Shown: positions 15,733 through 58,264, counted from the stretch's first letter. The stretch is DNA of 64,000 nucleotides from an uncultured Clostridia bacterium (GCA_944388695.1 CALXJT010000002.1:104-64103); one strand, 5' to 3'. Numbers and translations: made by a program. The notes: generated by a model not told the origin, from the sequence alone.

Positions 15733-15786
15733 TTTTTCCTCCTTGTAAATTTGTTTTCTTCCATATTGTTATTATTTCCGATTTTT

Positions 15787-16890: not shown

Positions 16891-16973
16891 ATTTTTTTCC
16901 TCCCCAATGCTTTTGTAAATTTTTTATATTTTTAAATTTAAATATTAGATTTATCCTTTTGTATTTTAATTTA

Positions 16974-18605: not shown

Positions 18606-18701
18606 AATAGTTTATCTCTCCTTTGTCTTATTGTTTACATTATAATTATAATATATTTTTTATTTTTGTTAAATACTTTTTTAGGATTACTATTTATTTC
18701 C

Positions 18702-19172
18702 TTAAACTGTTTTTCTTTCATATATTACGTCTTTTATATTATAGATTATTGCATGATCTCCTGTTCTATCAAAATCTCCAGATTTAAAATCTACATATAT
18801 TGTATATCTTCCATCCTTTAATTCATACATAAATGAACATTTGTCTACATTTTCACATATTTTTGTATCATTCCTATATATTGCTTTTGATTCTTCTGAA
18901 TATGTATATACATTATTTGAAGAAAATGCAATATAATTAGTTTTATCTGGTTTTATTCCAGCACTTATAATTTTATTTCCACTTTTGGCTATTTCTTCTC
19001 CAAAATAACTGTTAAACTGTGTGTATTGCTTCATCGCAATATTACTATCTGTAGTTAATTCTATATTTTTATAGAAATAACCTGTAACTACTGATATTAA
19101 AGCCACCACTATTAACATAGTTATTACATATATAATTAATGATGCTAGTGTAATACCTTTTTCAGATTTCAT
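18702..19172 (-). CDS. minor pilin-like protein (prepilin-type N-terminus, Ser at +5)
   Basis: MKSEKG|ITLASLIIYVITMLIVVALISV has a short basic leader, a Gly, then about 20 hydrophobic residues. Confidence 0.6.
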   Translation of the reverse strand: MKSEKGITLASLIIYVITMLIVVALISVVTGYFYKNIELTTDSNIAMKQYTQFNSYFGEEIAKSGNKIISAGIKPDKTNYIAFSSNNVYTYSEESKAIYRNDTKICENVDKCSFMYELKDGRYTIYVDFKSGDFDRTGDHAIIYNIKDVIYERKTV

Positions 19173-19173
19173 T

Positions 19174-19623
19174 TTAGCTCTCCTTTGACATTAGTGTTGA
19201 CAATTCAACTATTTGTGTATCTTGTCCTGATTTATAAGAAATTTTAACTGTTACTCTTTTTAATAAGTCTGGTACTTTTTGACTTCCTTCGCCTTCTCTA
19301 ATCTCACTATAATCTTCTACTCTGACCTCTTGATAATATCCTGTTGGATTTCCGCTTGCGTCTACTATATATTTATCTTTAAATCTTTCATCACTTATAA
19401 TATTACCATCACCTACTTTTGGTAATATATCAAATCCCTCACTTTTTACTCTTTCTAGTACCTCTACGGCATATGATGTAGCTTCTGTTCTCCTTTGGAC
19501 ATCTTGTGAGCTCTTTTGAATATTATATGATAATACTGTTATTAGTGAAATTAATATTGTTATTAATATTACAGATATTGTTATATCAACTCCTGTAACA
19601 CCTCTTTGGTCTCTTAAATTCAT
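19174..19623 (-). CDS. minor pilin-like protein (prepilin-type N-terminus, Asp at +5)
   Basis: MNLRDQRG|VTGVDITISVILITILISLITV. It is the only pilin in this locus with an acidic residue at +5. Confidence 0.5.
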   Translation of the reverse strand: MNLRDQRGVTGVDITISVILITILISLITVLSYNIQKSSQDVQRRTEATSYAVEVLERVKSEGFDILPKVGDGNIISDERFKDKYIVDASGNPTGYYQEVRVEDYSEIREGEGSQKVPDLLKRVTVKISYKSGQDTQIVELSTLMSKES

Positions 19624-19635
19624 CTTTTTCCCCCA

Positions 19636-20451
19636 CTATAATAAATATCTATTACAAAACAATGTTAATAAAAATGTTAGTAATCCATATGTTCCTAGTA
19701 GAAATCCAACTGGTATTTTTGTAGTTAATTTTTCTTTTTCTTTTACTACATTTCTTCTTTTGTTGATTAATTTATCTAATATTTTATATACTACAACTGT
19801 TATTATTGTTGAAATAATCGTTAATATAAATGCTGTTGCTCCTATAAATATTGATAATATTATTATTGTTAAAAGATTTCCATAAAAATAATTTGTTTGT
19901 GCTCTTTTTCTTAATGAAATTGTTTCAATTGCAAGTATTATTACATATATTACTAGATATATAACATATCTATAAATACTAGATTCTTCTATTATATATA
20001 GATATGCCATATATATAACAGATACTAGAACCCCATACATTAATACTGGTCGATTAATATTTATTTCTTCTTTATCTATTCCTGCCATTAATATTATAAA
20101 TGTATAAAATAATATAACAAATGCAAAATCTATTGCTTGATATATTGTTAATGTTTCTATTCTCATTCCCATACATAGAGCTGTTATCACAAAAAAGATT
20201 CCAGATAATATTTCTAAAATAAAATATCTTGGTCTTATTTTTTCTTTACAATATCTACATCTTCCTCTTAAAAATATATAACTAAATACTGGTATTAAAT
20301 CTAAAAAACCTAATTTGTGGTTACAATTTGGACAATATGAATGAGTATGTACTATATCTATTCTTTTTGGAATTCTATATACTGCTAATGTGTAAAAACT
20401 TCCAAATGTTATTCCCATTATAAATAAAATTATGTAAAATACTATGTTCAT
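19636..20451 (-). CDS. pilD: prepilin peptidase PilD (A24 family), with atypical second catalytic motif
   Basis: The N-terminal Cys pairs CPNC…CRYC match the DiS-P-DiS domain. The first Asp context is AGID(126)KEE. The C-terminal IPVGFLLG is present. The expected GxGD is read as YFYGN(192)LL. Confidence 0.75.
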   Translation of the reverse strand: MNIVFYIILFIMGITFGSFYTLAVYRIPKRIDIVHTHSYCPNCNHKLGFLDLIPVFSYIFLRGRCRYCKEKIRPRYFILEILSGIFFVITALCMGMRIETLTIYQAIDFAFVILFYTFIILMAGIDKEEININRPVLMYGVLVSVIYMAYLYIIEESSIYRYVIYLVIYVIILAIETISLRKRAQTNYFYGNLLTIIILSIFIGATAFILTIISTIITVVVYKILDKLINKRRNVVKEKEKLTTKIPVGFLLGTYGLLTFLLTLFCNRYLL

Positions 20452-20476
20452 CTTTTTTTCTTCCTTTTTATATTTT

Positions 20477-20507
20477 TAGGCATATACATTTGTCATGCAT
20501 ATGCCTA
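20477..20507 (-). other. hairpin between the pilin array and pilD (possible attenuator)
   Basis: TAGGCATAT at 20477-20485 is complementary to ATATGCCTA at 20499-20507. No U-tract follows on the minus strand. Confidence 0.3.
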
Positions 20508-20640
20508 TTGTTGCTTTTAATTTTAAAAATTATTTTATTTTGAAAAAATTAGTTTTCTAATATTATTTTATTTCTAGTATATCTGTTAAAGTTTTTAAAT
20601 TTCTTATTTAATCATTAATTATCTATACTTATTTTAGCTA

Positions 20641-21156
20641 TTAAATAGCTGGTGGAAAATCAGCTGTTTTTGACCATGTTCCTAATGCTCCATTTGCATC
20701 CAATGTTGCTTCTATAAATACTGGATCATCGTCTGTCGTTATTATTTGTACTTTCATTGATGCTCCTGAACCTATTACTTGAACTTTTGCGCCTTCTCCT
20801 TTTGTTGTAGCTTCATCATTTGAAACTTTTGTTGCATCTTCTATAAATTTTTTAGCTGTGTCTTGTGGTTTTCCAGCTACAACTTTTGTTCCTGTTCCTG
20901 CACCTGATGTATAATTATAATCGCTTTCACTTGCTCCTGCATATGTTACTGAATAATATGCATTTGTTGCTTCATTTATTGCCATTGCTACTACATCTCT
21001 TTGTGCTCCTATTGCATCTTCTTGTCTTGCTTTTGATGCATTTGTTAATATACCATTTTGTCCTCCTAATGCTGCTATTGATACTCCTGCTAATATTAAC
21101 AATACGATGATTGTTATTACAAGAGCTACTAATGTTATACCTTTATTACTTCTCAT
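20641..21156 (-). CDS. pilA: type IV pilin paralogue 3 (KG|ITLVA N-terminus)
   Basis: MRSNKG|ITLVALVITIIVLLILAGVSIA. Residues 5-74 are identical to the other two copies. It has its own AGGAGG RBS. Confidence 0.8.
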   Translation of the reverse strand: MRSNKGITLVALVITIIVLLILAGVSIAALGGQNGILTNASKARQEDAIGAQRDVVAMAINEATNAYYSVTYAGASESDYNYTSGAGTGTKVVAGKPQDTAKKFIEDATKVSNDEATTKGEGAKVQVIGSGASMKVQIITTDDDPVFIEATLDANGALGTWSKTADFPPAI

Positions 21157-21204
21157 TATTATTTCCTCCTATAAATTTATTATATTATCAGTCTTTGGTA
21201 AATT

Positions 21205-21744
21205 CTATCCACCTGCTGGGGGTGTGTATTCATCTGTTGCTGACCATGTTCCTAATGCTCCATTTGCATCTAATGTTGCTTCTATAAATACTGGATCATC
21301 ATCTGTTGTTATTATTTGTACTTTCTTTGTTCCACTAGCATCAACTACTTGAACTTTTGCACCTTCTCCTTTTGTTGTAGCTTCATCATTTGAAACTTTT
21401 GTTGCATCTTTTATAAAATTTATAGCTGTAGCTTGTGCATCTCCACCTTTTACTTTTGTATTTTTAGCTGGAGAAGCTGGTTTTAAGGCATCATTTGCAA
21501 ATGGATAATCCTCTTCGTCAGCTCCTGCATATGTTACAGAATAATATGCGTTTGTTGCTTCATTTATTGCCATTGCTACTACATCTCTTTGTGCTCCTAT
21601 TGCATCTTCTTGTCTTGCTTTTGATGCATTTGTTAAAATACCATTTTGTCCTCCTAATGCTGCTATTGATACTCCTGCTAATATTAACAATACGATGATT
21701 GTTATTACTAGAGCTACTAATGTTATACCTTTATTACTTTTCAT
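21205..21744 (-). CDS. pilA: type IV pilin paralogue 2
   Basis: The N-terminal 74 aa and the C-terminal block KVQIITTDDDPVFIEATLDANGALGTW match the neighbouring copies. The central segment is divergent. Confidence 0.8.
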   Translation of the reverse strand: MKSNKGITLVALVITIIVLLILAGVSIAALGGQNGILTNASKARQEDAIGAQRDVVAMAINEATNAYYSVTYAGADEEDYPFANDALKPASPAKNTKVKGGDAQATAINFIKDATKVSNDEATTKGEGAKVQVVDASGTKKVQIITTDDDPVFIEATLDANGALGTWSATDEYTPPAGG

Positions 21745-21793
21745 TATTATTTTCCTCCTAAAATATATTTATATTTTTAATCTTTTGCGATTA

Positions 21794-22309
21794 CTATGGT
21801 TCCACTGGAGCTGTTTTTGTCCATGTTCCTAATGCTCCATTTGCATCTAATGTTGCTTCTATAAATACTGGATCATCATCTGTTGTTATTATTTGTACTT
21901 TTGTTGAAGCTCCTGAACCTGTTACTTGAACTTTTGCACCTTCACCTTTAGTTGTTGCTTCATTATTTGAAACATATGTTGCATCTTCTATAAAGTTTAT
22001 TGCTGTAGCTTGTGCATCTCCACCTTCTACTTTAGAATCGCTTGTACTTCCTGCACCTGTAGTAAAATTATAATCACCTTCGTTAGCTCCTGCATATGTT
22101 ACAGAATAATATGCATTTGTTGCTTCATTTATTGCCATTGCTACTACATCTCTTTGTGCTCCTATTGCATCTTCTTGTCTTGCTTTTGATGCATTTGTTA
22201 AAATACCATTTTGTCCTCCTAATGCTGCTATTGATACTCCTGCTAATATTAACAATACGATGATTGTTATTACTAAAGCTACTAATGTTATACCTTTGTT
22301 GTTTCTCAT
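21794..22309 (-). CDS. pilA: type IV pilin paralogue 1
   Basis: Same architecture as the other two copies. It is the first of the three in transcription order. Confidence 0.8.
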   Translation of the reverse strand: MRNNKGITLVALVITIIVLLILAGVSIAALGGQNGILTNASKARQEDAIGAQRDVVAMAINEATNAYYSVTYAGANEGDYNFTTGAGSTSDSKVEGGDAQATAINFIEDATYVSNNEATTKGEGAKVQVTGSGASTKVQIITTDDDPVFIEATLDANGALGTWTKTAPVEP

Positions 22310-22389
22310 AATTCATCCTCCTTCTCTTTAGAATTTTATATTTGATTAGATAATCTCTTATCTAATGTTAATAACTAATCTGTTGTGTT

Positions 22390-22815
22390 CTATTTTGTAC
22401 CCCTGTCTGGGAAGTACCCTTCATCATCATTTGTTGTACTACTTGAATTTGAATTACTGTTTGAACTTGATGAACTGCTTGAACCACCTGAACTATTTGA
22501 AGTACTTGTGTTTGAATCTTCTTCTGTTGGTATAGATGCAAATGGATTACGTTTTCCTTGAACATATTCATTTGTTCTTTGGTAATTTTTTAAATCTGAT
22601 GCTGTTACTTCATATGTCATAACTATTTGATTTGCATCTGCATCTCCTTCTTGGGCAATTTCCTGTTTTGCTTCTTCTGGTGTCGTATATGATACTGTTT
22701 CTGGTAATATCTTTCCAGATGGTGAATATCCATATAGTAGAACACCCATTATCAAAATTATTGCAAGTGTAAGCAATAATATAATTGTAATTTCTTTAAT
22801 AATGTTTTTTGCCAT
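22390..22815 (-). CDS. membrane-anchored pilus accessory protein (PilP-like?) with Ser/Asn-rich tail
   Basis: N-terminal TM. The motif YVQGKRNPF resembles the PilP Y…G(R/K)RDPF motif. The C-terminal tail is SNTSTSNSSGGSSSSSSSNSNSNSSS. Confidence 0.35.
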   Translation of the reverse strand: MAKNIIKEITIILLLTLAIILIMGVLLYGYSPSGKILPETVSYTTPEEAKQEIAQEGDADANQIVMTYEVTASDLKNYQRTNEYVQGKRNPFASIPTEEDSNTSTSNSSGGSSSSSSSNSNSNSSSTTNDDEGYFPDRGTK

Positions 22816-22890
22816 TTATATCATTCCTTTCCTTAAAAGCTAGGTGAATTATGACTTCTAACTTTTAATAGGCTGTTTTGCTTTTATTTA

Positions 22891-23682
22891 TTAGTTTGAA
22901 TTTGTGTTACTACTTGTATTATTTGTGCTATTTGTGTTTGCACTATTTGTGTTATTTGTATTTGAACTGTTTGTATTAGAAGTATTTGTATTGTTTGAAT
23001 TTGTTGAATTATTAGTTGCATTTGCATTATTTGTATTAGAATTATTAGCATCTCCAGTTTCTCCGTTTGTTGCATCTGTATTTTCTGTTACTCCACTAAT
23101 TCCTTCAACTTTTATATCTTTACATACAAATGTTGCTTGTAACTCATCTTCTGAACTTCCTGTTGTCATTTTAAATTGTTCTATTCTAAATCCTAATTTT
23201 GAGTCATCTTCTATATCACTAATAAAATCTGTTATACCTATATATGGTCCTGTTACTGTAAAATCAAGGTCATATGTGTTCTCTGTACTTGATTCTCCTT
23301 TTACGAAGTCCATTTTCATAACAACACCTTCTCTTCTTGCATATGTTCCTATTTGTACCCATAAAAATGAGTTACTATATCCTTCCATCATGCTTGCTTC
23401 TTCTACTTGACTTTCTGTACTAACAGTTACCATATCTTCATATTTTTGTTTTTCTGTTTGTAGTTTTTTTACATTATTTTTTACTGATTGTTCTGCACTT
23501 GGGAAATCTGTGCTTGCCAATTTTGTTGCTTGAGTTACTGCTGTATCTAATTCTTCATTTTTCTCTTTTATACTTTGTATTCCTAATATTTCAATTGGCC
23601 CTAATTCAATTCCCTTTATAATTGTTGTAAATGTTAATAATGCAAATAATACAATAATAATTAATAGTAATAATTTTTTCAT
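22891..23682 (-). CDS. pilO: PilO-like pilus alignment protein with Asn/Thr/Ser-rich tail
   Basis: N-terminal TM, a coiled-coil segment and then a ferredoxin-like domain. It overlaps the pilMN stop by 4 nt. The roughly 60-aa C-terminal tail is N/T/S low complexity. Confidence 0.5.
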   Translation of the reverse strand: MKKLLLLIIIVLFALLTFTTIIKGIELGPIEILGIQSIKEKNEELDTAVTQATKLASTDFPSAEQSVKNNVKKLQTEKQKYEDMVTVSTESQVEEASMMEGYSNSFLWVQIGTYARREGVVMKMDFVKGESSTENTYDLDFTVTGPYIGITDFISDIEDDSKLGFRIEQFKMTTGSSEDELQATFVCKDIKVEGISGVTENTDATNGETGDANNSNTNNANATNNSTNSNNTNTSNTNSSNTNNTNSANTNSTNNTSSNTNSN

Positions 23683-25307
23683 GGTAAATCACCTTCTATC
23701 TTTACAGTAACTACATTATTTTCTTTTTGTCCTGCACTTGAAACAACATTTGTAAGAACTCCTTGATTTTCTATTTGTGCTTCAAAGAATCCTAGTTGTT
23801 CATATTTTTCTGATTGTGCAACTATTTCTATTTTTGTTCCTCCTGTATTTTCTATTGATGTAACTTGTACTCCCTCTGGAATATTATACATTATTGATGT
23901 TAAAAGATTTGGTATGGCTTTTTTTGTTTTATTTCTTTCTGCTATTTGGTCATTTATTTCTTGTAAGTTTTTTATCATACTTGAATATTCATTTGTTATT
24001 GATTTTATTTTTTCATCATCTGCTTTAGCAAGGTTAATTTGTGAAGTTGTAGATGATATTGATGTGTTGGCTTCTTCTCCTTTAGCATCCATTTGTTTAT
24101 TTAATAATGTTGAGAAAAATGTATATACTACAAATAGTATTACTAAACTAGATACTACTCTAAGTAGTGCTCTTTCTGTATTATCTAGTGGTTCTCTTAA
24201 ATCATTTGTTAATAATAATTTTGATGCTTTTGATTTTGCTTTTGATTTTCCTTTTTGTTCTGGATTAATATCTACCTTTAAAAGATTTTTAAGTTGTTCT
24301 CCAGCTGAATTACTTTTAAAGTTCATTCCTTCTATTCCTCTACCAAGATTCATTAATGCTAGAGATATAGCTGAATTCACTTCTATATAATCCTTAATAT
24401 TTGTATCTGGAGTCATTTTTATAAAATCTGGTTTTAATATTTGGCATTTTACATCCTCTAAATATTCCTCAAAATACAAATCTATATTATTTATTAAAGC
24501 CGCTGTTCCTGTAATATATACATTATCAATCTTATTTTCACTTTCATTTAGTACTTTTTTAGTTTGTCCAACTATTTCATATAAAATTGGCATTATATCT
24601 TCTAAATATGTTGCTTGTTCTTCTGTTATATCTTTACCTTCAGATGTATATATTGTTGTTTCTTTACAGATTTCATATGCCTTGCTTAATGAATTTTCTT
24701 TTGATTGGATTTTAGTAAGAAAATCATGACTTCCTATATCTAAAGTTTTTATATCATATACTTTTTGTCCAAAAATTGTTGTAATTGTAGTTTTTTCTTC
24801 AATATTTATTATAATTGCATTTTCTTTTTCATCAAAATCCGCTAAATCTGCAATTGAAACTCCTTCAGGGTATATTCCCATTAATCTATAACCTGCAAAC
24901 TGTTGTGTTTCTCTGTTAAAGTCTATTTTATTTGTACTTACATGTATTATTTTTAATTTTTCTTTTTCAAATAGACTGTTTGTAGCCGCATATCTTGATA
25001 GAAAGGCATTGCTATTATATCCTTTTTCTGCACAATATGATTCAAACTCTGTTGAGATTGCTTTTTCTAAATCTTTTTTATTTAATAAAGAAAACATATC
25101 AAAATAGTTATATGTTTCATCTAATAAGTTGAGACTTATTGGAATCTTATAACTACCCGTTTCATCTATTACTTGTTTAATTGCATCTTCTAATTTATCA
25201 TAAAAATTAACTCCAAAAGATTCTACTTTTATTTTATCTTTATCTTTTGCTACTTTGGCATATTTTATGATATTATTTTCAATATAAATTCCTAAACAAC
25301 TAGCCAT
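23679..25307 (-). CDS. pilM: PilM-PilN fusion protein
   Basis: The N-terminal ~330 aa are actin-like (MASCLGIYIENNIIKYAKV…, YITGTAALINNID). A TM follows (LLRVVSSLVILFVVYTFFSTLL), then a PilN-like coiled-coil and C-terminal domain. Confidence 0.65.
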   Translation of the reverse strand: MASCLGIYIENNIIKYAKVAKDKDKIKVESFGVNFYDKLEDAIKQVIDETGSYKIPISLNLLDETYNYFDMFSLLNKKDLEKAISTEFESYCAEKGYNSNAFLSRYAATNSLFEKEKLKIIHVSTNKIDFNRETQQFAGYRLMGIYPEGVSIADLADFDEKENAIIINIEEKTTITTIFGQKVYDIKTLDIGSHDFLTKIQSKENSLSKAYEICKETTIYTSEGKDITEEQATYLEDIMPILYEIVGQTKKVLNESENKIDNVYITGTAALINNIDLYFEEYLEDVKCQILKPDFIKMTPDTNIKDYIEVNSAISLALMNLGRGIEGMNFKSNSAGEQLKNLLKVDINPEQKGKSKAKSKASKLLLTNDLREPLDNTERALLRVVSSLVILFVVYTFFSTLLNKQMDAKGEEANTSISSTTSQINLAKADDEKIKSITNEYSSMIKNLQEINDQIAERNKTKKAIPNLLTSIMYNIPEGVQVTSIENTGGTKIEIVAQSEKYEQLGFFEAQIENQGVLTNVVSSAGQKENNVVTVKIEGDLP

Positions 25308-49588: not shown

Positions 49589-49636
49589 TAAAAAAATTGA
49601 GGCAGAAAACTTTAAACTTTCAAAGTTCTCCACCTC
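49589..49636 (-). terminator. rho-independent terminator ending the Tad-like operon
   Basis: The minus strand reads GAGGUGGAGAACUUU-GAAAGUUU-AAAGUUUUCUGCCUC (15 bp including G:U pairs) followed by AATTTTTTT. Confidence 0.6.
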
Positions 49637-49752
49637 ATTATTGACATTCAATCAAAATTTTCTATCTCGATTTTGGATATTCGAATCATATTAATATTTA
49701 TACTAATCTTTTTTAGTTTCAATTATTTAGTTCGATTTTTACTTTTTATTTA

Positions 49753-52188
49753 TTAATGTACTGGTACATTAATTCTATAGAAATATGATTCTTCACTTCC
49801 ATTTGTTTTTTGGCTTACTATTTTAAATACATATGAAGCTTCTTGATTTGGTACTTGATATGTTCTATCACTTATTTTTACTACATTTTCTGTTGTTAAA
49901 TTTGTGATTTCTTGTATAGTTCCTTGACTGTCATTTGCTGTTAATGTTATTAAATAAGTATTATTTGATTCATTATATGCTAATTCGCTGTCTACTTGAA
50001 TAGTACTATCTACATTATTATTATTTCCTAAACATGCTATATTTACACTTGCAGTCTCTTGTACACCATTAATATTTGTTATCATAAATTCGTAATCTCC
50101 ATTTGCTGTAATTGTATATAGTTCATCACTTCCAGGTTGTTTTGTTATATTTTGTGTTGTTACATTAGTTATACTGCTAATTCCTCCTGCTATAGTATCT
50201 GTTGCAGTAACTCTTAATGTTAGAGATTGCATATCATCTGCTATACTTACTATTTCAAAGTTTGGTACAATATTATATGTTTTTAATGAACCCACATCTA
50301 CTCTAAATGTTTTTACATTACCTTGTGAATCTACTATTCTAAATTCATAAGATTGATTTTTATTTATTGTATAGTGATTTTGATCTATCCTATTTATTCC
50401 ATCTTGAGTAATATTTGTAATACTTGTTATCGTATTTCCTGTATTTGATGTTGCATATATTTCAAGTGATGCTGTTCCATCTCCATTATCTACTAAATTA
50501 TATGTTACATCTATTGGGTCTGGTGTTGGCTCTATAGGGCCTCCTCCTCCAGTTGATGTATCTTCTACATTTATCTTATTATCTGTTCTATACATTCCAA
50601 ATCGTTCTCTTCCTAGTGCAGTATAGTAAATCGATGCTAAATCACTATTACTATCTATAATTTCATATATATTACCCTCTTGTTCTCCTCTTCTATTTAC
50701 AATGCTTTTATAACACCCTGTTACTCCTTCTATTGGATAATAATATCTTACCATACCTTCATTGGTATAACCTCTTTTTACCTCAAAACTTATATTATAA
50801 TATCCAACAGCTCCATTTAAATAATTATATGCATCTAAATCTTCATCCTTGGCTGTATGATATGTTCCATCACTTGTTAGGATATATATTGAACTTTCTG
50901 GTACATATTCTTCTGTTTTATTATTTGATACTACAGAATATCCATTATATATCTTTCCTCCAATACTTAAACCTTGTAAGAATGTAATCATTGAGACATT
51001 AGTAGATATATCTTCCCATTCATAATCTTTTAATTCTGGCATTTTAAAATTAACATTATTATTAGCACCTTCATAATTGTTATAATTACTTATTGCTACA
51101 GATAAGTTTTTTTCTACAGAATATCTTATAATATTAGCTTTGTGAAGATAGAAGTCTGATTTTGGATCCTCTATTGCTGTTCTAGAAGAAAATAATTCAT
51201 CGAAAATTTTTGTATTATCTAATTGATATCTATCATATTTTTCCATTGTATTTAATTTAGTTCCATCAGAATCTACTGCATCACTTGCTCTAATATTTTT
51301 TAATGATGATGTGCTTATTGCTTGTTTTAAATCATATGCTTCTTGGTAATATTGTATAGCGTTATTATTATTTAGTATATCATCAGGTGTTATTTCTGTT
51401 GCTATTGTTTTTATTGTATTAAATACTGAAAATACTTCATTTGTACTTGCATCATAATAGTATTTAACTCCATTGATTTTTCTACATGGAAGTCTTCTAG
51501 GTTCAGTTTCACCTTTTATCATTACATTTTCTTTCAAATTTGTTTCAGTTCCTATTCTTATACCTCTATATGTTACATTTCCACTTGCATCTTTCTCTAC
51601 ATCAGATAATAAATATCCTTTTAAATTTACTACTTTTCCATCGCACATTCCTTTTATTGTTATATAACTATCTAAAGAATATGTGATTACTACATCATAA
51701 CTTGCACTAACATATCTGCAACTATAATAAACATATGGCTTTAATCCATATAATTTCTCTCCATTTTTATATGTTTCATCATTTGTCCCTACTATATCTA
51801 TTGTCTCTTGGTCCCAAGTATTTGTATAAGGTGAATAGATATAGTATCCATCATATAGTGTAAATACAACTGCTGGAACAAATGCTTGAATACTTTCTTT
51901 GTCTAATCCTGCTAGATCAAAACTATCTCCAATTGATGTAAAAAAACTATTTACTGAAGCTGCAACATTCTCCATTCTTGAATTTACTATGTTTGATTCA
52001 TCACTATTATATGAATTTAATTTATATGCATTAATAGCATCTGCTGTTGCCTGATCTAATTTAGAATCGTAATCTATTTGATATTTTAATGTATCAACTT
52101 TTGCATCTGTATATGCTGCTAAAACTAATGTTATAGGTAGAATAAATATTATGAACATAACTGCTAAATTCTCTAATTTCATACTCAT
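49753..52188 (-). CDS. large TM-anchored surface protein with three C-terminal ~75-aa Ig-like repeats (putative tip or adhesin subunit)
   Basis: The N-terminus is MSMKLENLAVMFIIFILPITLVLAAY. A linker GGGGPIEPTPDPI is followed by three repeats sharing L-(I/L)-AT…G-I-(S/E)ITN(I/V/L)T…Y-(I/V)…Y-F-I. Confidence 0.55.
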   Translation of the reverse strand: MSMKLENLAVMFIIFILPITLVLAAYTDAKVDTLKYQIDYDSKLDQATADAINAYKLNSYNSDESNIVNSRMENVAASVNSFFTSIGDSFDLAGLDKESIQAFVPAVVFTLYDGYYIYSPYTNTWDQETIDIVGTNDETYKNGEKLYGLKPYVYYSCRYVSASYDVVITYSLDSYITIKGMCDGKVVNLKGYLLSDVEKDASGNVTYRGIRIGTETNLKENVMIKGETEPRRLPCRKINGVKYYYDASTNEVFSVFNTIKTIATEITPDDILNNNNAIQYYQEAYDLKQAISTSSLKNIRASDAVDSDGTKLNTMEKYDRYQLDNTKIFDELFSSRTAIEDPKSDFYLHKANIIRYSVEKNLSVAISNYNNYEGANNNVNFKMPELKDYEWEDISTNVSMITFLQGLSIGGKIYNGYSVVSNNKTEEYVPESSIYILTSDGTYHTAKDEDLDAYNYLNGAVGYYNISFEVKRGYTNEGMVRYYYPIEGVTGCYKSIVNRRGEQEGNIYEIIDSNSDLASIYYTALGRERFGMYRTDNKINVEDTSTGGGGPIEPTPDPIDVTYNLVDNGDGTASLEIYATSNTGNTITSITNITQDGINRIDQNHYTINKNQSYEFRIVDSQGNVKTFRVDVGSLKTYNIVPNFEIVSIADDMQSLTLRVTATDTIAGGISSITNVTTQNITKQPGSDELYTITANGDYEFMITNINGVQETASVNIACLGNNNNVDSTIQVDSELAYNESNNTYLITLTANDSQGTIQEITNLTTENVVKISDRTYQVPNQEASYVFKIVSQKTNGSEESYFYRINVPVH

Positions 52189-52267
52189 CTTTCCTTTTGT
52201 TTATTCTTAAATAGCTTGTAATATATTTTTTATTACAAGCTATTTATGTTTTATAGAAATATTTTTA

Positions 52268-52816
52268 TTAATTCTCTGAACCAGTTGTTCTTGACATACC
52301 AGATTCACTTGATGCAATATTATATGTATCATCACCTATTACTGTATAGAAGAAGTTTCTCATTTGTTCTGATATTCCTTGACTTGCACTTCTTACAGTT
52401 ACATATATTAAATCTCCTTCTTTTAATAGATATGCTTTTGGAGTTCCTCTTTCTGGTTCTACTACATCTGTAATCTGTGATGTTTCTATATTGTAATATA
52501 GATTTTCTCCTATTTTATCTCTACTTACTTGGACTGATTTTTTACTTGGATTTTCATCTAATACCTTAACTTGAATCTCAACTACATACAAATATCCCGT
52601 AGAATTAATCTTTTGTCTAAATGTTGTAAGATCTTCTGGTGTAATTTTTCCTTTTGTACAAACATTATCCACAAATTCTCTAGTTGCTGCATCTACTGTA
52701 GCCTGTGTAATGTCATCTGCTCTATCTCCCATTGTCATTAGTGGAAAAATAAACATTAATATTACTGATAATCCTATTACAATTACTATAATTAGTGTAT
52801 CTCCTCTTTCTCCCAT
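52268..52816 (-). CDS. pseudopilin-like TM protein (ERG|DTLIIVIVIGL N-terminus)
   Basis: MGERGDTLIIVIVIGLSVILMFIFPLMTM has a short charged leader ending in Arg-Gly, followed by a hydrophobic segment. This recalls TadE/prepilin N-termini. Confidence 0.4.
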   Translation of the reverse strand: MGERGDTLIIVIVIGLSVILMFIFPLMTMGDRADDITQATVDAATREFVDNVCTKGKITPEDLTTFRQKINSTGYLYVVEIQVKVLDENPSKKSVQVSRDKIGENLYYNIETSQITDVVEPERGTPKAYLLKEGDLIYVTVRSASQGISEQMRNFFYTVIGDDTYNIASSESGMSRTTGSEN

Positions 52817-52864: not shown

Positions 52865-53476
52865 TTAATTAATTTCGTAAATTATAACTCTTTTTTCTTC
52901 TTTATTTGCTTCTGGTACATCTTCTGTATCATTTGTATAATATACGCCTAATTTTTCTGTTACAGTTTTATTTTTTAATTGATCATATAAGCTTTTGTTT
53001 GGTAAAATGATATTTACACCATACCAAGTATCAAATAGTCCATTACTTCTATCTCCATAAATTATTGCGTTTAAAAAAACTTTTGAATTTTGTCTTCTAT
53101 CTGCAACAGTTAATGGTTCATAATCTATACCATTATTTGGTTCTGAACCTAAAGTTTTTCTTTTGATTAATTGTCCTCTTGTAGTTCTATATGTAAATAA
53201 TGTCTCATCATCTAGTCCTTCAAATACTACTTTATATCTCTCACTATATACTCTGTACACTGATGGAATTATTGTTTCTAATCCCACCTGTCTTTCAAGA
53301 CCTGTAGCTTCATAATAAAAATCTCCATTAATATATGTAACTTCTCTATCTTGGCTATCTATAATGGAATCTGTTGCTTCCCTTACTTGCCCAAAAGATA
53401 CAATACTAACGGAAAGTGCTATTATAAATAACATTACGGCTCCTGCCATTTTTAAAGCATCTACAGCATTTTCCAT
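52865..53476 (-). CDS. pilin-like protein, MENAVDAL-type N-terminus
   Basis: MENAVDALKMAGAVMLFIIALSVSIVSF is related to the MENASKAL paralogues. 203 aa. Confidence 0.45.
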   Translation of the reverse strand: MENAVDALKMAGAVMLFIIALSVSIVSFGQVREATDSIIDSQDREVTYINGDFYYEATGLERQVGLETIIPSVYRVYSERYKVVFEGLDDETLFTYRTTRGQLIKRKTLGSEPNNGIDYEPLTVADRRQNSKVFLNAIIYGDRSNGLFDTWYGVNIILPNKSLYDQLKNKTVTEKLGVYYTNDTEDVPEANKEEKRVIIYEIN

Positions 53477-53532
53477 TAGTATTCACCTTCCTTTATCTTA
53501 AATTATTTTGTATTTTATATATCTAACTATTC

Positions 53533-53946
53533 TTATGGACCAGTAGTTGTACCAGTTTCTTTAACAGTTATTGAATCAATACGTCCTCCTGCACCTTCAT
53601 AACTTAATTCCACGTCGTAATATGTATTATTTTCAATCCCTGTTGTAGTTGGTTGATAATTATTTGCTGCTTGACCTGGCAAAGTCATTTTTATTTTTTG
53701 TGACTCATCTTCTGTTGCATTATTATTTGCTAATACTTCTTGTATTAATGATTTAATCATTACTCCTCTTTGTTTTCCTTCATATTTTGTATATGTATTG
53801 TTAAATGTTTGAACTTCTGCTTTACTCATTCCTGAACTTGATACTGTATCTTGTGCTTGTTGAAATATCATTATTCCTAAAGAGATTAGTAATATTGCTA
53901 ATAATATAGCTCCTGCTATAATTAAGGCTTTTGATGCATTCTCCAT
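53533..53946 (-). CDS. pilin-like protein, MENASKAL family (tandem duplicate of 54007-54399)
   Basis: MENASKALIIAGAILLAILLISLGIMIF…VQTFNNTYTKYEGK. The first ~78 aa are nearly identical to the neighbour. The C-terminal block is NNTYYDV…GAGGRI…ITVK. Confidence 0.5.
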   Translation of the reverse strand: MENASKALIIAGAILLAILLISLGIMIFQQAQDTVSSSGMSKAEVQTFNNTYTKYEGKQRGVMIKSLIQEVLANNNATEDESQKIKMTLPGQAANNYQPTTTGIENNTYYDVELSYEGAGGRIDSITVKETGTTTGP

Positions 53947-54006
53947 ATTAACTCCCCCTTTTCCTTAATAATTTTCTTATTTAAAATTTGCTTTTTAAAA
54001 AATTAT

Positions 54007-54399
54007 TTAACTAGATTTTTTAACTGTAATTTTATTAATTCTTCCTCCAGCACCTTTGTATTCAAAAGATACGTCATAATATGTGTTATTTAGAATATCT
54101 TTTGTATTTGGAGATGTAGTGTCTGTACCAAGTAAAGACATAGTTATTTGTTCAGATGTATCATCTGTCGCATTATTATTTGCTAATACTTCTTGTATTA
54201 ATGATTTAATCATTACTCCTCTTTGTTTTCCTTCGTATTTTGTGTATGTGTTGTTGAATGTCTGAACCTCCGCTTTACTCATTCCTGCACTTGAAACTGT
54301 GTCTTGTGCTTGTTGGAATATCATTATTCCTAAAGATATTAATAAAATTGCTAGTAATATAGCACCTGCTATAATTAAGGCTTTTGATGCATTCTCCAT
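54007..54399 (-). CDS. pilin-like protein, MENASKAL family
   Basis: Same N-terminal half as 53533-53946, with a divergent central segment. 130 aa. Confidence 0.5.
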   Translation of the reverse strand: MENASKALIIAGAILLAILLISLGIMIFQQAQDTVSSAGMSKAEVQTFNNTYTKYEGKQRGVMIKSLIQEVLANNNATDDTSEQITMSLLGTDTTSPNTKDILNNTYYDVSFEYKGAGGRINKITVKKSS

Positions 54400-54470
54400 A
54401 TTAATTCCTCCTTTGTTTTTTTATTTTTTATATTAACTACTAAAAAATTAGTAAAATTTAAATAACTATT

Positions 54471-54899
54471 TTATGCTATTTGTTCAAAATACATATAGCT
54501 TATTAGTTTTGTTTTTTCGTGATACTCTATCTTTGTGCATTTAAAATTTATTAAACGATAATATTGTATGAAGTTTTCCATACCTCCGTTGTAAAATGAT
54601 TCCATATCATATGTTTTATCATTATCTGTCATCTTTACTTGTATTGCTATTGAATCTGTATCATTTTGCTTATAGAAACCTTTTTCATCTTTTTTTACAT
54701 TATTTTGATAATTTCTATCAATAGCTTTATTAATGATGGATGTTAATTCAAAACATGATACTTCTTTATTTAAATATGTTTCAAAATATACATTCTGTGT
54801 TTTTATGTTTTGAAATTTTACTCGATATTGAAGATATCCATAAATAATCATACATAATATCGCAATAAAAATGATAATTATTGTAATAAATTTTTTCAT
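54471..54899 (-). CDS. TM-anchored paralogue of the pilin-like family (different N-terminus)
   Basis: The N-terminus is MKKFITIIIIFIAILCMIIYG. The C-terminal FKCTKIEYHEKTKLISYMYFEQI parallels YQCTEIGYHTGTTGRVSYIKFKTI of 55029-55472. Confidence 0.4.
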   Translation of the reverse strand: MKKFITIIIIFIAILCMIIYGYLQYRVKFQNIKTQNVYFETYLNKEVSCFELTSIINKAIDRNYQNNVKKDEKGFYKQNDTDSIAIQVKMTDNDKTYDMESFYNGGMENFIQYYRLINFKCTKIEYHEKTKLISYMYFEQIA

Positions 54900-55028
54900 T
54901 TTCCATCCTTTTTATTATAACACTTTTTGAAATTTTTTTCAAGTTTTTGAATTGTTTTGTTGAATTCTGTGTAATATTTGATTAATTCTATTTTTTGATA
55001 TATTTCTTAATATATTTTTTATTATTAA

Positions 55029-55472
55029 TTATATTGTTTTAAATTTTATATAACTTACTCTTCCTGTTGTACCTGTATGATATCCTATTTCAGTGCATTG
55101 ATATAACTGATTATATCCTGCGTTTTGGATTTTTTTATCTAGCTCATCTTGAGAAAAATCTTGAATTTGTACATTGTCTAAATAAACTGTGATTTTATAA
55201 TATGTTTCATACATATTTGAGCTTTCATATTCAAGGTTATTTTGATGTGCTGCATTTGCTGTTGAAACTATATTATAAATTGTTATATCACTTCTTCCTT
55301 CATATACTGTGTATTCTGAATTAAATTCAATTAATTGTTGATTTGCATTTCTCTCATTTACTTTTGCTGCTGATGATCCAAAACTAACTATTAAATATAC
55401 TGCTAATGATAATATCATTACTCCAACTAAAACGCTTGCCGCAATTAATAATGCTTTTGATGCATTTTCCAT
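55029..55472 (-). CDS. pilin-like protein, MENASKAL family
   Basis: MENASKALLIAASVLVGVMILSLAVYLIV…LIEFNSEYTVYEGR. 147 aa. Confidence 0.5.
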   Translation of the reverse strand: MENASKALLIAASVLVGVMILSLAVYLIVSFGSSAAKVNERNANQQLIEFNSEYTVYEGRSDITIYNIVSTANAAHQNNLEYESSNMYETYYKITVYLDNVQIQDFSQDELDKKIQNAGYNQLYQCTEIGYHTGTTGRVSYIKFKTI

Positions 55473-55481
55473 AATATCCCT

Positions 55482-56162
55482 CTACTTTACAAATTCAAAT
55501 TTCATACTTTTTATTTGACCTTTATCATGATATTGAGGCTCTTCAGATATTTTAAATGTACTTGTTTTTAATACTGAATATTCTTCATAATTTTGTATTG
55601 TTTTTACTGCTTCTGCTCCTGATAATGTGTTTCCATTTTCATCTTTAAATTGTTTACCTATTATCTCTTCAATCCTTATACTTCCATCTTTTATAGAATC
55701 TAAATATGTTATTAATTGTTTCATCCCATTTAAAGTATTATTTGATTCTAATTTACGATTTTTTTCTACTATATTTAGAAATTCTTTATTAGTTCTTGAT
55801 ATTTCATATGTAGATTTTGTAAAATAATTTAAAGTTCCTCCACATTTATTCTTAAACTTGTCTCCAAGTACAATTGTTAATGTGATTGGTAAGTCATAAT
55901 CTATTTCCCCAACTGTTCCAGATCTTGTGTTATAGTCTGCAACTTTATTAGCTAATGATATCATATCTACGCCCTGTAATTTATCACGTGCATACCTTGT
56001 ATACTCTTGATTAAAATCTGCTAACTGTATGGTTGCTTTTGTATTTGTTTGTTCTTTGTTATAGTCTGAAACTTGATTAAACATTAAGAGTAATGCACTA
56101 ATTACTAATAATCCTATTAACACACCACCCGCTATTAATAAAGCTTTTGAAGCATTTTCCAT
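55482..56162 (-). CDS. pilin-like protein, MENASKAL family (largest member)
   Basis: MENASKALLIAGGVLIGLLVISALLLMF…LADFNQEYTRYARD. 226 aa. Confidence 0.5.
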   Translation of the reverse strand: MENASKALLIAGGVLIGLLVISALLLMFNQVSDYNKEQTNTKATIQLADFNQEYTRYARDKLQGVDMISLANKVADYNTRSGTVGEIDYDLPITLTIVLGDKFKNKCGGTLNYFTKSTYEISRTNKEFLNIVEKNRKLESNNTLNGMKQLITYLDSIKDGSIRIEEIIGKQFKDENGNTLSGAEAVKTIQNYEEYSVLKTSTFKISEEPQYHDKGQIKSMKFEFVK

Positions 56163-56185: not shown

Positions 56186-58264
56186 TTACAAAGTTGAACC
56201 TGACATAGAATCAAATGAACTTGACATACTTGTTAATCCTATAAATACTAGTGGAATAATTAGGTATCCAACAAACATACATATCATCGGTGCAAAACCT
56301 ATTCCTCTTCCTATCATTCCTTTTGATTTTATTAATCTTTCGTTTGATTCTTTTCTCTTTTCACGATAGTATTCTCTTTCTGAATCTAATTCGTCAAAAG
56401 CGTCTTTAATTGGTATTTTTTCAACGGCTGCTTGTAGACTTTCTACAATTCTTATTAATGGTTGATATGATATTTCATTTTTCATTTCTTCTAATGCTTC
56501 CCACGCACCTGCTTCATAGTTGTTAACACATTTTGTAATTGGTTCGCGGAATATATTTGAATATCTCTCTAGCCATTCTAAAATTATTTCTACATTAACT
56601 CTTTCGATTCTCATAAGCATAAGTATAATTGTTTGGAATTGCATTACTTCATCTTCCATTTCTAGTTGTCTTATTTTCTTTTGGAAGAATAAAATCCAAA
56701 TTGGTGCCATATATCCTACTATTGCAAATACAAATGCTAATAAGAATTCAAACCACTTCATATATTCACTATTTACTATTTGTATTTTTCCATAAATTCT
56801 TTCTGCTGCTGTTTCAATTTCATCTGAAGTTGCTTCTTCATAATAATCTGAATCTTCTAGTGCTTTTGCTATTTCCTCTTGGGTTACATCCATTTGCCCT
56901 CTAAATCTGTCTAAAAATTCATTGTCTTGTTTTGTTACTTCCATCGCCTTTTCTTCTTCTTTTTCTGATAGCCCTCCTATTAAGTCATAATCTGTGGTCG
57001 GCTCTGTATATACATATTCAATTGCAACTGTATGTAGTTGTACGAATATTATTAGAGATGCAATAAAAGTTACTGCACAGAGTACTATTCTATTTATATA
57101 AAGCCACTCTATTTTTAGATATGATGCTGCATCTTTTAATAATTGAATAATTTTACGATATTCTTTTGTTCCTTCTTTTGGTATAAATAAATTTACAAAT
57201 TTGCGTATATATTTTTTCTTATATAATTTTGCCTGTATTGGATTTTCTGTGTTCTTTGTGTTCATATTTGTTGAACCGTTATCTTTTAGTTTTCTTACTA
57301 ATACATAAGATATGAATGTTAAAATCAATATTAATATTTGTACTATCATTCCTGGTTTTCCTAAATACCAACTTGCAACAAAAGAGAAGTTACTTATTGC
57401 CCAGTTTTTTAGTGGCTCTAGTAATACTATTGGTGCTATTGATATAAAAGATAAACTTTGGAATACATAGTTTAATTTATCTCTTTTTAATATTTCTAAT
57501 TGTAATTCCTGTGTAATATTATCAACGTTTTTCAAGTATAGTGATGCTCCATCAACTTTTCTATCACCAAATTCTTTTGTTAGATATGATATTCCAGCAA
57601 ATTCTTTTAAGAAACTGTTTGGTGCTATATCATAGTATTTTTCTAGTTCTGTTTCTGGGTCATCTGATATTAGTATTTCATATATCTTTTCACCCTGTCT
57701 TGATATATCTAGCTCATCGTCCTGAGAAACCTGATAAATTGCCTCTTCTACCATGTTGAATTCATGATATGCATGTCTTATTTCTGAAAAGAATTCTATT
57801 TGTTGTTTAAGTAAATTGTCATCTATTTTATCAACAGAGCCATCTATAAAGGTATCTATCATGAATATTTCAAATATAAATACTATAAACATTACTAAAT
57901 AACTTGAACGTGTAATATAAAGACTTATGATAATAATCGGAATTATTATAGCAAGTGATTTCGTTAAAATTCTTGATGCATCTTTTCTGGTATTGTACTC
58001 ATCATCTATATTTATAATCTCTAGTCTTCTTCTCAATTTTAATATGTAACGTTTTAAGAATGGTATTTTTACATAATATACATATAATTTTTGGTATAAT
58101 ATTTCCATTGAGAATGACTTTTGTTTTGTTCCTTGTTGTAATTTTTGTATCTTTTTATACTCTGATTTTTGCATTTTTTTAGAAAGAATGTAATATGCAA
58201 GTACGATAAGTACAAATGCTCCTGCTGCTACTCCCATTATGATATATATTGTTTGGTTTGACAC
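56186..58264 (-). CDS. polytopic platform protein, putative fused TadB/TadC (T2SS F-like)
   Basis: 692 aa with several TM clusters separated by helical cytoplasmic domains. It is about twice the size of a single TadB or TadC. It lies immediately downstream of the secretion ATPase. Confidence 0.5.
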   Translation of the reverse strand: MSNQTIYIIMGVAAGAFVLIVLAYYILSKKMQKSEYKKIQKLQQGTKQKSFSMEILYQKLYVYYVKIPFLKRYILKLRRRLEIINIDDEYNTRKDASRILTKSLAIIIPIIIISLYITRSSYLVMFIVFIFEIFMIDTFIDGSVDKIDDNLLKQQIEFFSEIRHAYHEFNMVEEAIYQVSQDDELDISRQGEKIYEILISDDPETELEKYYDIAPNSFLKEFAGISYLTKEFGDRKVDGASLYLKNVDNITQELQLEILKRDKLNYVFQSLSFISIAPIVLLEPLKNWAISNFSFVASWYLGKPGMIVQILILILTFISYVLVRKLKDNGSTNMNTKNTENPIQAKLYKKKYIRKFVNLFIPKEGTKEYRKIIQLLKDAASYLKIEWLYINRIVLCAVTFIASLIIFVQLHTVAIEYVYTEPTTDYDLIGGLSEKEEEKAMEVTKQDNEFLDRFRGQMDVTQEEIAKALEDSDYYEEATSDEIETAAERIYGKIQIVNSEYMKWFEFLLAFVFAIVGYMAPIWILFFQKKIRQLEMEDEVMQFQTIILMLMRIERVNVEIILEWLERYSNIFREPITKCVNNYEAGAWEALEEMKNEISYQPLIRIVESLQAAVEKIPIKDAFDELDSEREYYREKRKESNERLIKSKGMIGRGIGFAPMICMFVGYLIIPLVFIGLTSMSSSFDSMSGSTL

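Follow-up and report, generated by a model that had tools for sequence, protein, structure and literature searches.

A conserved family of pilin-like proteins encoded beside a Tad-like gene set in gut Clostridia

Tad (type IVc) systems, such as CpaF-CpaB-CpaE of Caulobacter and tadZABC-flp of Aggregatibacter, join a CpaF/TadA-type ATPase to a CpaB/RcpC-like protein with a SAF domain, ParA-like proteins of the TadZ/CpaE type and small N-terminally hydrophobic subunits. Gram-positive tad-like loci without a recognisable prepilin (the 'no Flp' groups) have also been described, and pilin candidates were not identified in them (Imam et al. 2011, PMC3244431). Here we analyzed a locus of this general kind from an uncultured Clostridia bacterium. 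It is a tightly packed 13-gene operon on the minus strand, running from 62929 to 49753 between a HAD hydrolase gene and spoIVB, in a 64,000-nucleotide (nt) stretch of DNA with about 26% GC (GCA_944388695.1 CALXJT010000002.1:104-64103; hereafter the window, with positions counted from its first letter). Six of its products, five of which share an N-terminus beginning with MENA, seemed to be pilin-like subunits of a Tad-like (type IVc-related) filament machine that is highly divergent and restricted to Firmicutes. We consider this the probable reading of the locus, with considerable room for doubt.

Five minus-strand open reading frames (ORFs) open with MENA(S/V)(K/D)AL, after which come about 21 hydrophobic residues. 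An initial annotation of the window had pointed out this start, and both the ORF calls and a six-frame regular-expression scan agreed with it; the scan found no sixth occurrence in the window. Four of the ORFs have the form MENASKAL and encode proteins of 226 amino acids (aa; 55482-56162), 147 aa (55029-55472), 130 aa (54007-54399, copy 1 of a tandem pair) and 137 aa (53533-53946, copy 2). The fifth, of 203 aa (52865-53476), reads MENAVDAL. A 142-aa paralogue on the same strand (54471-54899) has an ordinary signal-anchor N-terminus, which consists of MKK and a transmembrane (TM) helix. We judged the five MENA start codons to be sound because each has a Shine-Dalgarno sequence and an upstream in-frame stop and because public gene calls give the same ORF boundaries. 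The Shine-Dalgarno sequences lie within about 12 nt 5′ of every ATG and are GGAGG- or AGGAG-like in four cases, with a weaker AGAGGGA at 55029-55472. The stops lie 3-8 codons 5′ of the ATGs.

The MENASKAL peptide occurs more than 600 times in species-representative genomes, and the 80 best species-level loci among these occurrences were taken as our sample of the gut clade. Over 296 orthologues from these loci, positions 1, 2, 3 and 7 were invariant and positions 4, 8, 11 and 15 nearly invariant. Profile-profile comparison between the orthogroups with hhalign gave E-values of 1e-10 to 1e-27. The MENA resemblance is therefore not due to chance, and the family is real. The 226-, 147-, 137/130- and 142-aa groups belong to one family (E 1e-5 to 1e-27), within which the 226-aa group matches those of 147 and 137 aa as homologues with E 1e-25 to 1e-26. 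The 142-aa protein had been related to the 147-aa protein through a C-terminal block; we found that the similarity extends over nearly the full length (hhalign 98.7%, E 3e-16). The motif F-N-x-x-Y-T-x-Y, reported for four of the five MENA ORFs, is indeed present in four and is part of a family-wide (F/Y)xxY(D/E)(G/N)...G..V block. The 203-aa group stands apart. It has only its first ~35 residues in common with the others, and its profile alignments (E ~1e-10) are confined to residues 1-31 to 1-38. By analogy, kinship restricted to the N-terminus is typically seen between unrelated pilins of one system. No kinship with the MENA family was detectable by profile comparison for the two last products of the operon, of 182 and 811 aa.

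The tandem pair 53533-53946 and 54007-54399 combines a nearly identical N-terminus with a divergent remainder, as the initial annotation stated: 77 of the first 78 residues are identical, against 27 of 59 in the rest. The first 240 nt of the two genes differ at 18 sites, with just one amino-acid change (S38A). Purifying selection rather than recent duplication therefore appears to keep the N-termini alike. Across species, 18 of the 22 invariant columns of the 137/130-aa slot lie within residues 1-24, and the C-terminal half is hypervariable. There are one to three copies per species, and this is the only slot that varies in copy number.

Each 'paralogue' of the window is a conserved orthologous slot across the 80 loci. 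In about 80 metagenome-assembled genomes (MAGs) the gene order is HAD, SAF, two ParA-like genes, ATPase, membrane protein, 226, 147, 142, 137/130, 203, 182, 811 and SpoIVB. The 226-aa orthogroup was kept in all 80 loci, the 142-aa protein in 76 and the 182-aa protein in 73; the first operon gene was syntenic in 62 of 80. These best 80 loci come from uncultured gut MAGs of humans, mice, rabbits, chickens and sheep, labelled Clostridia or Clostridium except for one Bacilli and one 'bacterium'. In the gut Clostridia, the locus is chromosomal and vertically inherited. The 147-aa protein falls into 151 clusters at 90% identity, none of which has a name, and the family has 5257 representatives at 50% identity (E<=1e-3). 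Among the 150 matches listed in a search of a representative library, we found close orthologues only. Literature searches returned no paper describing the system.

The genes preceding the subunits gave the clearest link to Tad systems. Pfam and NCBIfam were scanned with all locus proteins and with three further sets of 150, 105 and 41 orthologues. The 652-aa product of 58287-60245 (minus strand) is a type IV filament ATPase of the CpaF/TadA-like type. It matched T2SSE (PF00437) above the cutoff with E 7.9e-7, and its best NCBIfam match was the TadA family (TIGR03819, E 1.2e-8). Its only relatives in the PDB at E<=0.01 were bacterial CpaF proteins (E 2e-10). The ATPase is longer than the matched PDB CpaF chains (652 aa versus 423-501 aa), with a predicted TM helix (MTITNILLTLVVIVAAVMAVFYYIKKKKK) at its start and a basic tail at its end. 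Membrane anchoring is uncommon in the CpaF/TadA ATPase family.

The first operon gene (61814-62929, minus strand) encodes a 371-aa CpaB/RcpC-like protein that combines an N-terminal TM helix with a SAF domain. SAF (PF08666) was matched in 24 of its orthologues, with a best E of 2.3e-5, and ChapFlgA in 16. Two ParA-like genes follow on the same strand. The product of 61108-61803 (231 aa) is possibly a degenerate ParA/TadZ-like partner, and that of 60260-61105 (281 aa) is ParA/MinD-like and TadZ/CpaE-like, with CbiA/AAA_31 matches and a residual ETGKT Walker-A motif. CbiA/ParA (PF01656) was matched in 32 members of a mixed orthologue set; since no single orthogroup supplied as many as 32 sequences to the set, the matches must come from more than one. 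Only a scan of many orthologues made the SAF and CbiA/ParA domains detectable. Judged by these domain assignments, the set of CpaB/RcpC-, TadZ/CpaE- and CpaF/TadA-like genes has the content of a Tad (type IVc) system. The order, from accessory genes through ATPase and membrane protein to small N-terminally hydrophobic subunits, is also that of Tad/Flp loci, including the SAF-type gene in first place.

The differences from Tad/Flp loci lie mainly in the membrane components and in the subunits themselves. The MENA subunits have 130-226 aa and a globular head, whereas Flp has about 50 aa. They lack the G|xxxxEY site and have no Pfam match to Flp (PF04964), TadE or TadG. The locus has no tadV, its ATPase has an N-terminal TM helix, and a single 692-aa membrane protein (56186-58264, minus strand, about eight TM segments) stands where TadB and TadC would be expected; neither is recognisable. 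This protein occupies the platform position and may be TadB/TadC-like. Its mean column identity of 76-84% makes it the best-conserved protein of the cluster. The loci of Imam et al. (2011, PMC3244431) are similar in having Firmicutes homologues of tadA, tadZ and rcpC together with species-specific small genes of no assigned function, and in having biosynthetic genes only distantly related to those of other tad loci. Compared by description only, they differ in that they were reported to possess tadV and a recognisable tadC, of which the MENA locus has neither.

In about one quarter to one third of the MAG loci (L004, L010, L012-L016 and others), the 692-aa gene was present as two ORFs of about 436 and 251 aa, and the ATPase often appeared as about 470 plus 194 aa. 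In these cases the genes could truly be split, or the cause could be programmed frameshifting or an error of the assembly.

Orthologous clusters were found outside the gut clade. Homologues of the 692-aa protein with 25-40% identity are carried by 35 megaplasmids of cultured Firmicutes, namely Thermobacillus, Paenibacillus, Cohnella, Alkalihalophilus, Cytobacillus, Sporosarcina, Lysinibacillus, Clostridium (botulinum, argentinense, beijerinckii) and Butyrivibrio. We examined 12 megaplasmid loci and compared five of them in full with hidden Markov models (HMMs) and phmmer. The clusters considered here are those of pTHECO01, pPPM1a, pBsph, pBpOF4-01, C. botulinum p12/29, C. argentinense pRSJ17_1 and B. 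proteoclasticus pCY186/pCY360. They share gene order and core orthology with the chromosomal locus, although not every component was detected on each plasmid. The order begins with SAF, a hypothetical protein at the position of the 231-aa protein, a ParA-like gene and TadA/CpaF. The membrane-protein gene comes next and is followed by one or two small pilin-like genes, by a 182-like gene and by a gene like the N-terminal part of the 811-aa protein. Five core components were present in all five fully compared clusters; the second ParA-like protein and the N-terminal domain of the 811-aa protein (E 2e-6 to 8e-20) were found in four, and the 231-aa protein and the pilin-like gene in three. The 182-aa protein was among those found in all five (E 1e-15 to 8e-30). 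The orthologues of the membrane protein matched with E 3e-49 to 2e-168 and those of the ATPase, annotated TadA/CpaF, with E 1e-116 to 1e-236. The orthologues of the 371-aa protein are annotated 'SAF domain-containing protein', and the Thermobacillus orthologue of the 281-aa protein is annotated ParA.

The pilin-like copies on the plasmids are all annotated 'hypothetical protein'. Among them are WP_014600154.1 of Paenibacillus polymyxa M1 (pPPM1a), WP_015256743.1 of Thermobacillus composti KWC4 and WP_012291814.1 of Lysinibacillus sphaericus C3-41 (pBsph); Butyrivibrio proteoclasticus B316 is a further cultured carrier of the cluster. The first small gene starts with MSTNASKAL... or MGENARKAL... 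and has a Y(D/E)(N/G)...G(S/A)xV block. In three loci the pilin-like gene directly after the membrane-protein gene was matched best by the 137/130 profile (2e-14 to 1e-10). Because it is closest to this plasmid gene, we took the 137/130 slot as the ancestral major subunit. The plasmids have only one or two pilin-like genes, compared with five or six on the gut-Clostridia chromosome, and we infer that the other four subunit slots are an expansion specific to the gut clade.

We considered whether the locus originated from a mobile element and rejected this on three grounds: there was one match among 2.9 million viral contigs, the 147-aa protein had no tblastn match on plasmids, and all 35 carrier plasmids are typed as non-mobilizable.

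A pilin-like nature of the subunits was also suggested by structure prediction, which the initial annotation had recommended. The AlphaFold 2 (AF2) model of the 147-aa protein, computed with 50 homologues in the alignment, had a predicted local distance difference test (pLDDT) score of 93.7 and a predicted template modelling (pTM) score of 0.72. In it, residues 2-55 form one unbroken helix and residues 61-146 an alpha/beta head. A 54-residue N-terminal helix with a small head is, at the level of the model, the 'lollipop' architecture of type IV pilins. On the same model, the head is not a known pilin head. Pilin heads are diverse, and the missing head match is therefore weak negative evidence.

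We propose the following mechanism. Each subunit would be a bitopic membrane protein made of a 7-residue polar segment, a hydrophobic helix of about 21 residues, an alpha-1 helix of about 55 residues and a small alpha/beta head. The membrane-anchored ATPase, acting through the 692-aa protein, would pull subunits from the membrane and stack them into a surface filament, with the two ParA/TadZ-like proteins and the SAF/CpaB-like protein assisting assembly. The 137/130-aa slot would provide the major subunit, because it is closest to the plasmid gene, varies in copy number and has an invariant N-terminus and a hypervariable C-terminal half; the 130- and 137-aa proteins are thus the candidate major subunits of the window. 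The 226-, 147-, 142- and 203-aa proteins might be lineage-specific minor subunits, and the 182-aa and 811-aa repeat proteins might be further accessory or tip (adhesin) components. As a proposal of pilin-like filament subunits, the initial annotation thus gained from the predicted fold, the Tad-like operon setting and the variable 137/130 slot. The archaeal affinity that it had seen in them was lost, as described below.

Several observations weigh against a filament of this kind. There is no experimental evidence of a filament for any member. No Pfam or NCBIfam family matches any of the six pilin-like proteins, nor any of the 150 orthologues. The comparison with pilin profiles that had been proposed for these proteins was equally negative: N_methyl, Flp, TadE, Pilin_N and Class_IIIsignal gave nothing at E<=1 for the window proteins and the 150 orthologues. 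For the MENA proteins, PDB searches with single sequences and with profiles found no pilin, and the best PDB match to the 147-aa model in Foldseek had E 0.29 and was not a pilin. The 692-aa protein is a candidate platform by its position and polytopic nature only. T2SSF (PF00482) was matched in none of its 41 orthologues, single-sequence and profile searches of the PDB gave no match, and hhalign was negative both against the PilC of the window and between its own N- and C-terminal halves, which gave no sign of an internal repeat. Its AF2 model was unusable (pLDDT 48.8), with a shallow alignment of 78-100% identity.

These observations leave some room for a machine without a filament, in which the MENA proteins would stay bitopic in the membrane or form just a short pseudopilus. 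Facing the periplasm or the wall, they would belong to an envelope machine that is driven by CpaF and has another task, for example secretion, the transfer of DNA or contact between cells, connected with the biology of the megaplasmids. A platform protein not recognisably TadB/C-like and a head domain matching no solved pilin would fit such a machine, as would the ordinary MKK signal anchor of the paralogue 54471-54899 and the anchoring of the ATPase in the membrane, unlike CpaF. The plasmid neighbours fit as well. After the plasmid clusters, and in this differing from the gut locus, there are often SLH, DUF5704, GGDEF or cell-wall hydrolase genes, and once a type IV secretion system (T4SS) coupling-protein gene. 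However, a 54-residue helix with a small head is the architecture of a pilin, and one hypervariable subunit accompanied by conserved minor ones and a large repeat protein is the make-up expected of a major pilin, minor pilins and an adhesin. The typing of all 35 carrier plasmids as non-mobilizable and the vertical inheritance of a chromosomal locus in gut Clostridia also speak against it. We regard an envelope machine without a filament as improbable and retain the Tad-like filament machine as the better explanation.

Concerning the plasmid neighbours themselves, cell-wall hydrolase genes were seen in or next to the clusters, and on Butyrivibrio pCY360 the T4SS coupling-protein gene lies just downstream of the cluster. 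Such neighbours (L089 9956-10717; L096 6118-6876; L090 1-1608; L097 9116-9584) are hints of envelope-spanning or transfer functions.

Returning to the filament machine, its subunits would carry the N-terminal heptapeptide as a short class-III-like leader. An A24-type peptidase, with its gene at another place in the genome, would cut this leader off between Ala7 and Leu8. We compared this region in 13 diverse homologues. Their starts were MENASKAL, MSTNASKAL, MNNASSAL, MSNAQKAL, MDSVTKAI, MSGSVSTAL, MKESTSTAL, MESPVVKAI, MDSPVVKKI, MGENARKAL, MGENGRKGL, MDDNATKGL and MGGSLSEGL. The 6-8 residues preceding the hydrophobic stretch vary in sequence. Position -1 was Ala in eight, Gly in four and Lys in one, position +1 was Leu or Ile, and position -2 was Lys in nine, Thr in two, Ser in one and Glu in one. 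A variable polar segment with constant -1 and +1 positions is a plausible leader-like pattern and speaks for an A7|L8 site. On this pattern, we lean slightly towards cleavage between Ala7 and Leu8.

The site is not that of bacterial type IV pilins, in which the leader ends in Gly and is followed by F/M/L/I/V at +1 and Glu at +5; here position -1 is Ala, position +5 would be Gly or Ala after cleavage at A7|L8, and N_methyl (PF07963) was not matched. The initial annotation had instead invoked the archaeal [K/R][G/A/S]| rule. Four of the five ORFs agree with that rule; the orthogroup of the 203-aa protein (52865-53476) breaks it, having Asp or Glu at position 6, the -2 position, in 57 of 59 members. 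Gly12, which had been put forward as conserved and as an alternative site, was rejected: Ala is found at position 12 in 55 of 72 members of the 147-aa orthogroup, and for the 203-aa orthogroup the count is 34 of 59.

The leader-like pattern also raises the question of archaeal descent, that is, whether archaeal-type pilins (Aap/Ups/Epd-like) were gained from Archaea and are processed by an archaeal-type class III signal peptidase. The MENA proteins do resemble archaeal Aap/Ups pilins in their short leader-like segment, with Lys at -2 and Ala at -1 in four of the five ORFs, where a small residue other than Gly is allowed, and in having no Glu at +5. Subunits of 130-160 aa with a head domain are a further likeness. 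Among the family scans, the sole pilin-related signal was to UpsA, below threshold (E 0.023). However, its score of 14.9 bits is far under the cutoff of 130, and neither Pilin_N nor Class_IIIsignal was matched in the 150 orthologues or the window proteins. The MENA proteins match no archaeal model, break the -2 rule in one orthogroup and, unlike those pilins, have a segment that is not positively charged. They are encoded with bacterial Tad-like machinery: the only PDB relatives of the ATPase are bacterial CpaF proteins, and the accessory genes are the bacterial SAF/CpaB and ParA/TadZ set. The distribution is confined to Firmicutes. The head of archaeal pilins is beta-rich and Ig-like, and the predicted head of the 147-aa protein is alpha/beta. 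An archaeal origin thus appears extremely unlikely, and as far as the sequences go the archaeal flavour is a resemblance only.

A different objection to a cleaved leader came from the peptidase. We searched the first 80 loci by phmmer with the PilD-like protein of the window, and scanned the window and 90 loci for GxGDxK. Neither search found anything. None of the 92 related loci, the plasmid clusters included, had an A24 peptidase gene inside it or in the 4-10 kb around it. The sole prepilin-peptidase-like gene of the window, at 19636-20451 (minus strand), lies 33 kb away in a separate type IVa (T4a) pilus cluster. Its product has the A24 N-terminal domain (A24_N_bact, zinc ribbon; E 2e-30) but gave no Peptidase_A24 match even at E<=10 and has no GxGD motif. 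The same pattern recurred in all of the 120 listed homologues, of 3885 in total. Compared with its clade, it has Glu in place of a near-invariant Asp at position 176 and Ala in place of a near-invariant Glu at position 205 (FTGEY). The sequence suggests that it may be an atypical or inactive peptidase.

It is conceivable, if distinctly less likely than cleavage, that the same filament is built without a prepilin peptidase and that M-E-N-A-S-K-A-L is the mature N-terminus of a leaderless subunit. The family would then have lost its cleaved leader or have lacked one from the beginning. Alpha-1 would start with these residues as its first turns, with Glu2 and Lys6 (i, i+4) neutralising each other or pairing between subunits and so replacing the pair of Glu5 and N-terminal amine in classical pilins. 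Such a subunit would explain both the absent A24 gene near the 92 loci and the cap that is invariant across five paralogues and 80 species. An A24-like gene in the window without a recognisable catalytic domain agrees with it as well. The nearly invariant positions 4, 8, 11 and 15, with invariant position 7, have a spacing (4, 7/8, 11, 15) that fits one face of a helix, and in the AF2 model residues 2-55 are one continuous helix. The polar segment has a net charge of zero or below and is not positive, and its -2 residue is acidic in practically the whole 203-aa orthogroup. In the gut clade, conservation is higher at residues 1-4, 7 and 8 than in the hydrophobic core, and a leader that is discarded would not usually show this. 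For comparison, the leaders of near-identical T4a paralogues in the window do vary (MRSNKG, MKSNKG and MRNNKG).

The wider range of homologues told a different story. There, the polar segment varies freely while Ala or Gly at -1 and Leu or Ile at +1 are kept, and several homologues read like textbook prepilins (RKG|L, TKG|L). In type IV pilus assembly it is energetically costly to draw a charged N-terminus across the membrane without cleavage, which also tells against a leaderless subunit. A peptidase at a distance from its pilus locus has precedent, and MSH loci lack one of their own (Denise et al. 2019, PMC6668835). Weighing both sides, we still place cleavage first and the leaderless subunit well behind it, and a somewhat smaller share of our expectation goes to some other arrangement.

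The T4a cluster of the window (about 14389-25307) served as an internal comparison. It has PilB, PilT, PilC (T2SSF) and the PilD-like gene, and its pilins have no homology with the MENA family. The likenesses are a short leader, the lack of Glu5 and tandem major-pilin genes. Its three tandem major-pilin paralogues (20641-22309, minus strand; 171, 179 and 171 aa) do not differ within roughly their first 75 residues but vary in the middle, so that a constant N-terminus is combined with a variable exposed part as in the 137/130 pair. The T4a site reads NKG|ITLVA; thus the leader ends in Gly, with a weak N_methyl match, and position +5 is Ala, not Glu, a local precedent for a leader site without Glu5.

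The two last genes of the operon, both on the minus strand, might add further components. The 182-aa protein (52268-52816), in which a short N-terminus is combined with a TM helix and a Pro is conserved, is possibly pseudopilin-like. DUF4320 was matched below threshold in 8 of the 150 members of a mixed set of pilin-like and 182-aa proteins (best E 0.011). In three gut loci (L005, L010 and L036), very large extra ORFs of 429-1555 aa were seen between the 203-like and 182-like genes, and their best match was the 182-aa protein. The 811-aa protein (49753-52188) has an N-terminal TM helix and three C-terminal tandem repeats of about 87 aa each, starting at about residue 560. It exceeds most of its orthologues, which have 500-600 aa. 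The repeats look like a variable adhesin module, and the protein is a candidate adhesin. Neither the 182-aa nor the 811-aa protein matched TadE or Tad in the family scans (PF07811, PF13400).

Some signals of the operon could also be located. It ends in a terminator-like hairpin at 49598-49637 (minus strand), with an 18-bp stem followed by a T-run. The best sigma-70-like promoter match, at 54914-54942 (minus strand), lies in the 129-nt gap upstream of 54471-54899 and reads TTGAAA-17-TATAAT with a TG extension (11/12); it is a match to the consensus only, and the total number of matches in the region is at the level of shuffled sequence. The 182-aa and 811-aa genes are separated by 79 nt, and in this gap a perfect 16-bp inverted repeat (TAAATAGCTTGTAATA...TATTACAAGCTATTTA) was observed at 52208-52246; it could be an internal attenuator or a protein-binding site. 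Over the window as a whole (1-64000), nearly all genes lie on the minus strand and the GC and AT skews are negative almost throughout, which would agree with a single replichore of a Firmicutes chromosome that has a strong strand bias.

The MENA proteins make up a large family that has no name and is not covered by a Pfam or NCBIfam model. It is missed by motif-based pilin finders and by the tested Pfam and NCBIfam models because of the Ala at -1, the lack of Glu5, the non-basic leader and the absence of a linked peptidase. The locus probably encodes a surface filament of widespread, uncultured, low-GC gut Clostridia. The same machine is carried by megaplasmids of cultured Paenibacillus, Lysinibacillus, Clostridium botulinum and argentinense, and Butyrivibrio, which makes it accessible in the laboratory. 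The rules by which pilins are found are broadened by this family. If the subunits prove to be unprocessed, they would be the first of any type IV filament to do without a prepilin peptidase, and the requirement of an A24 peptidase for all type IV filaments would have to be revised.

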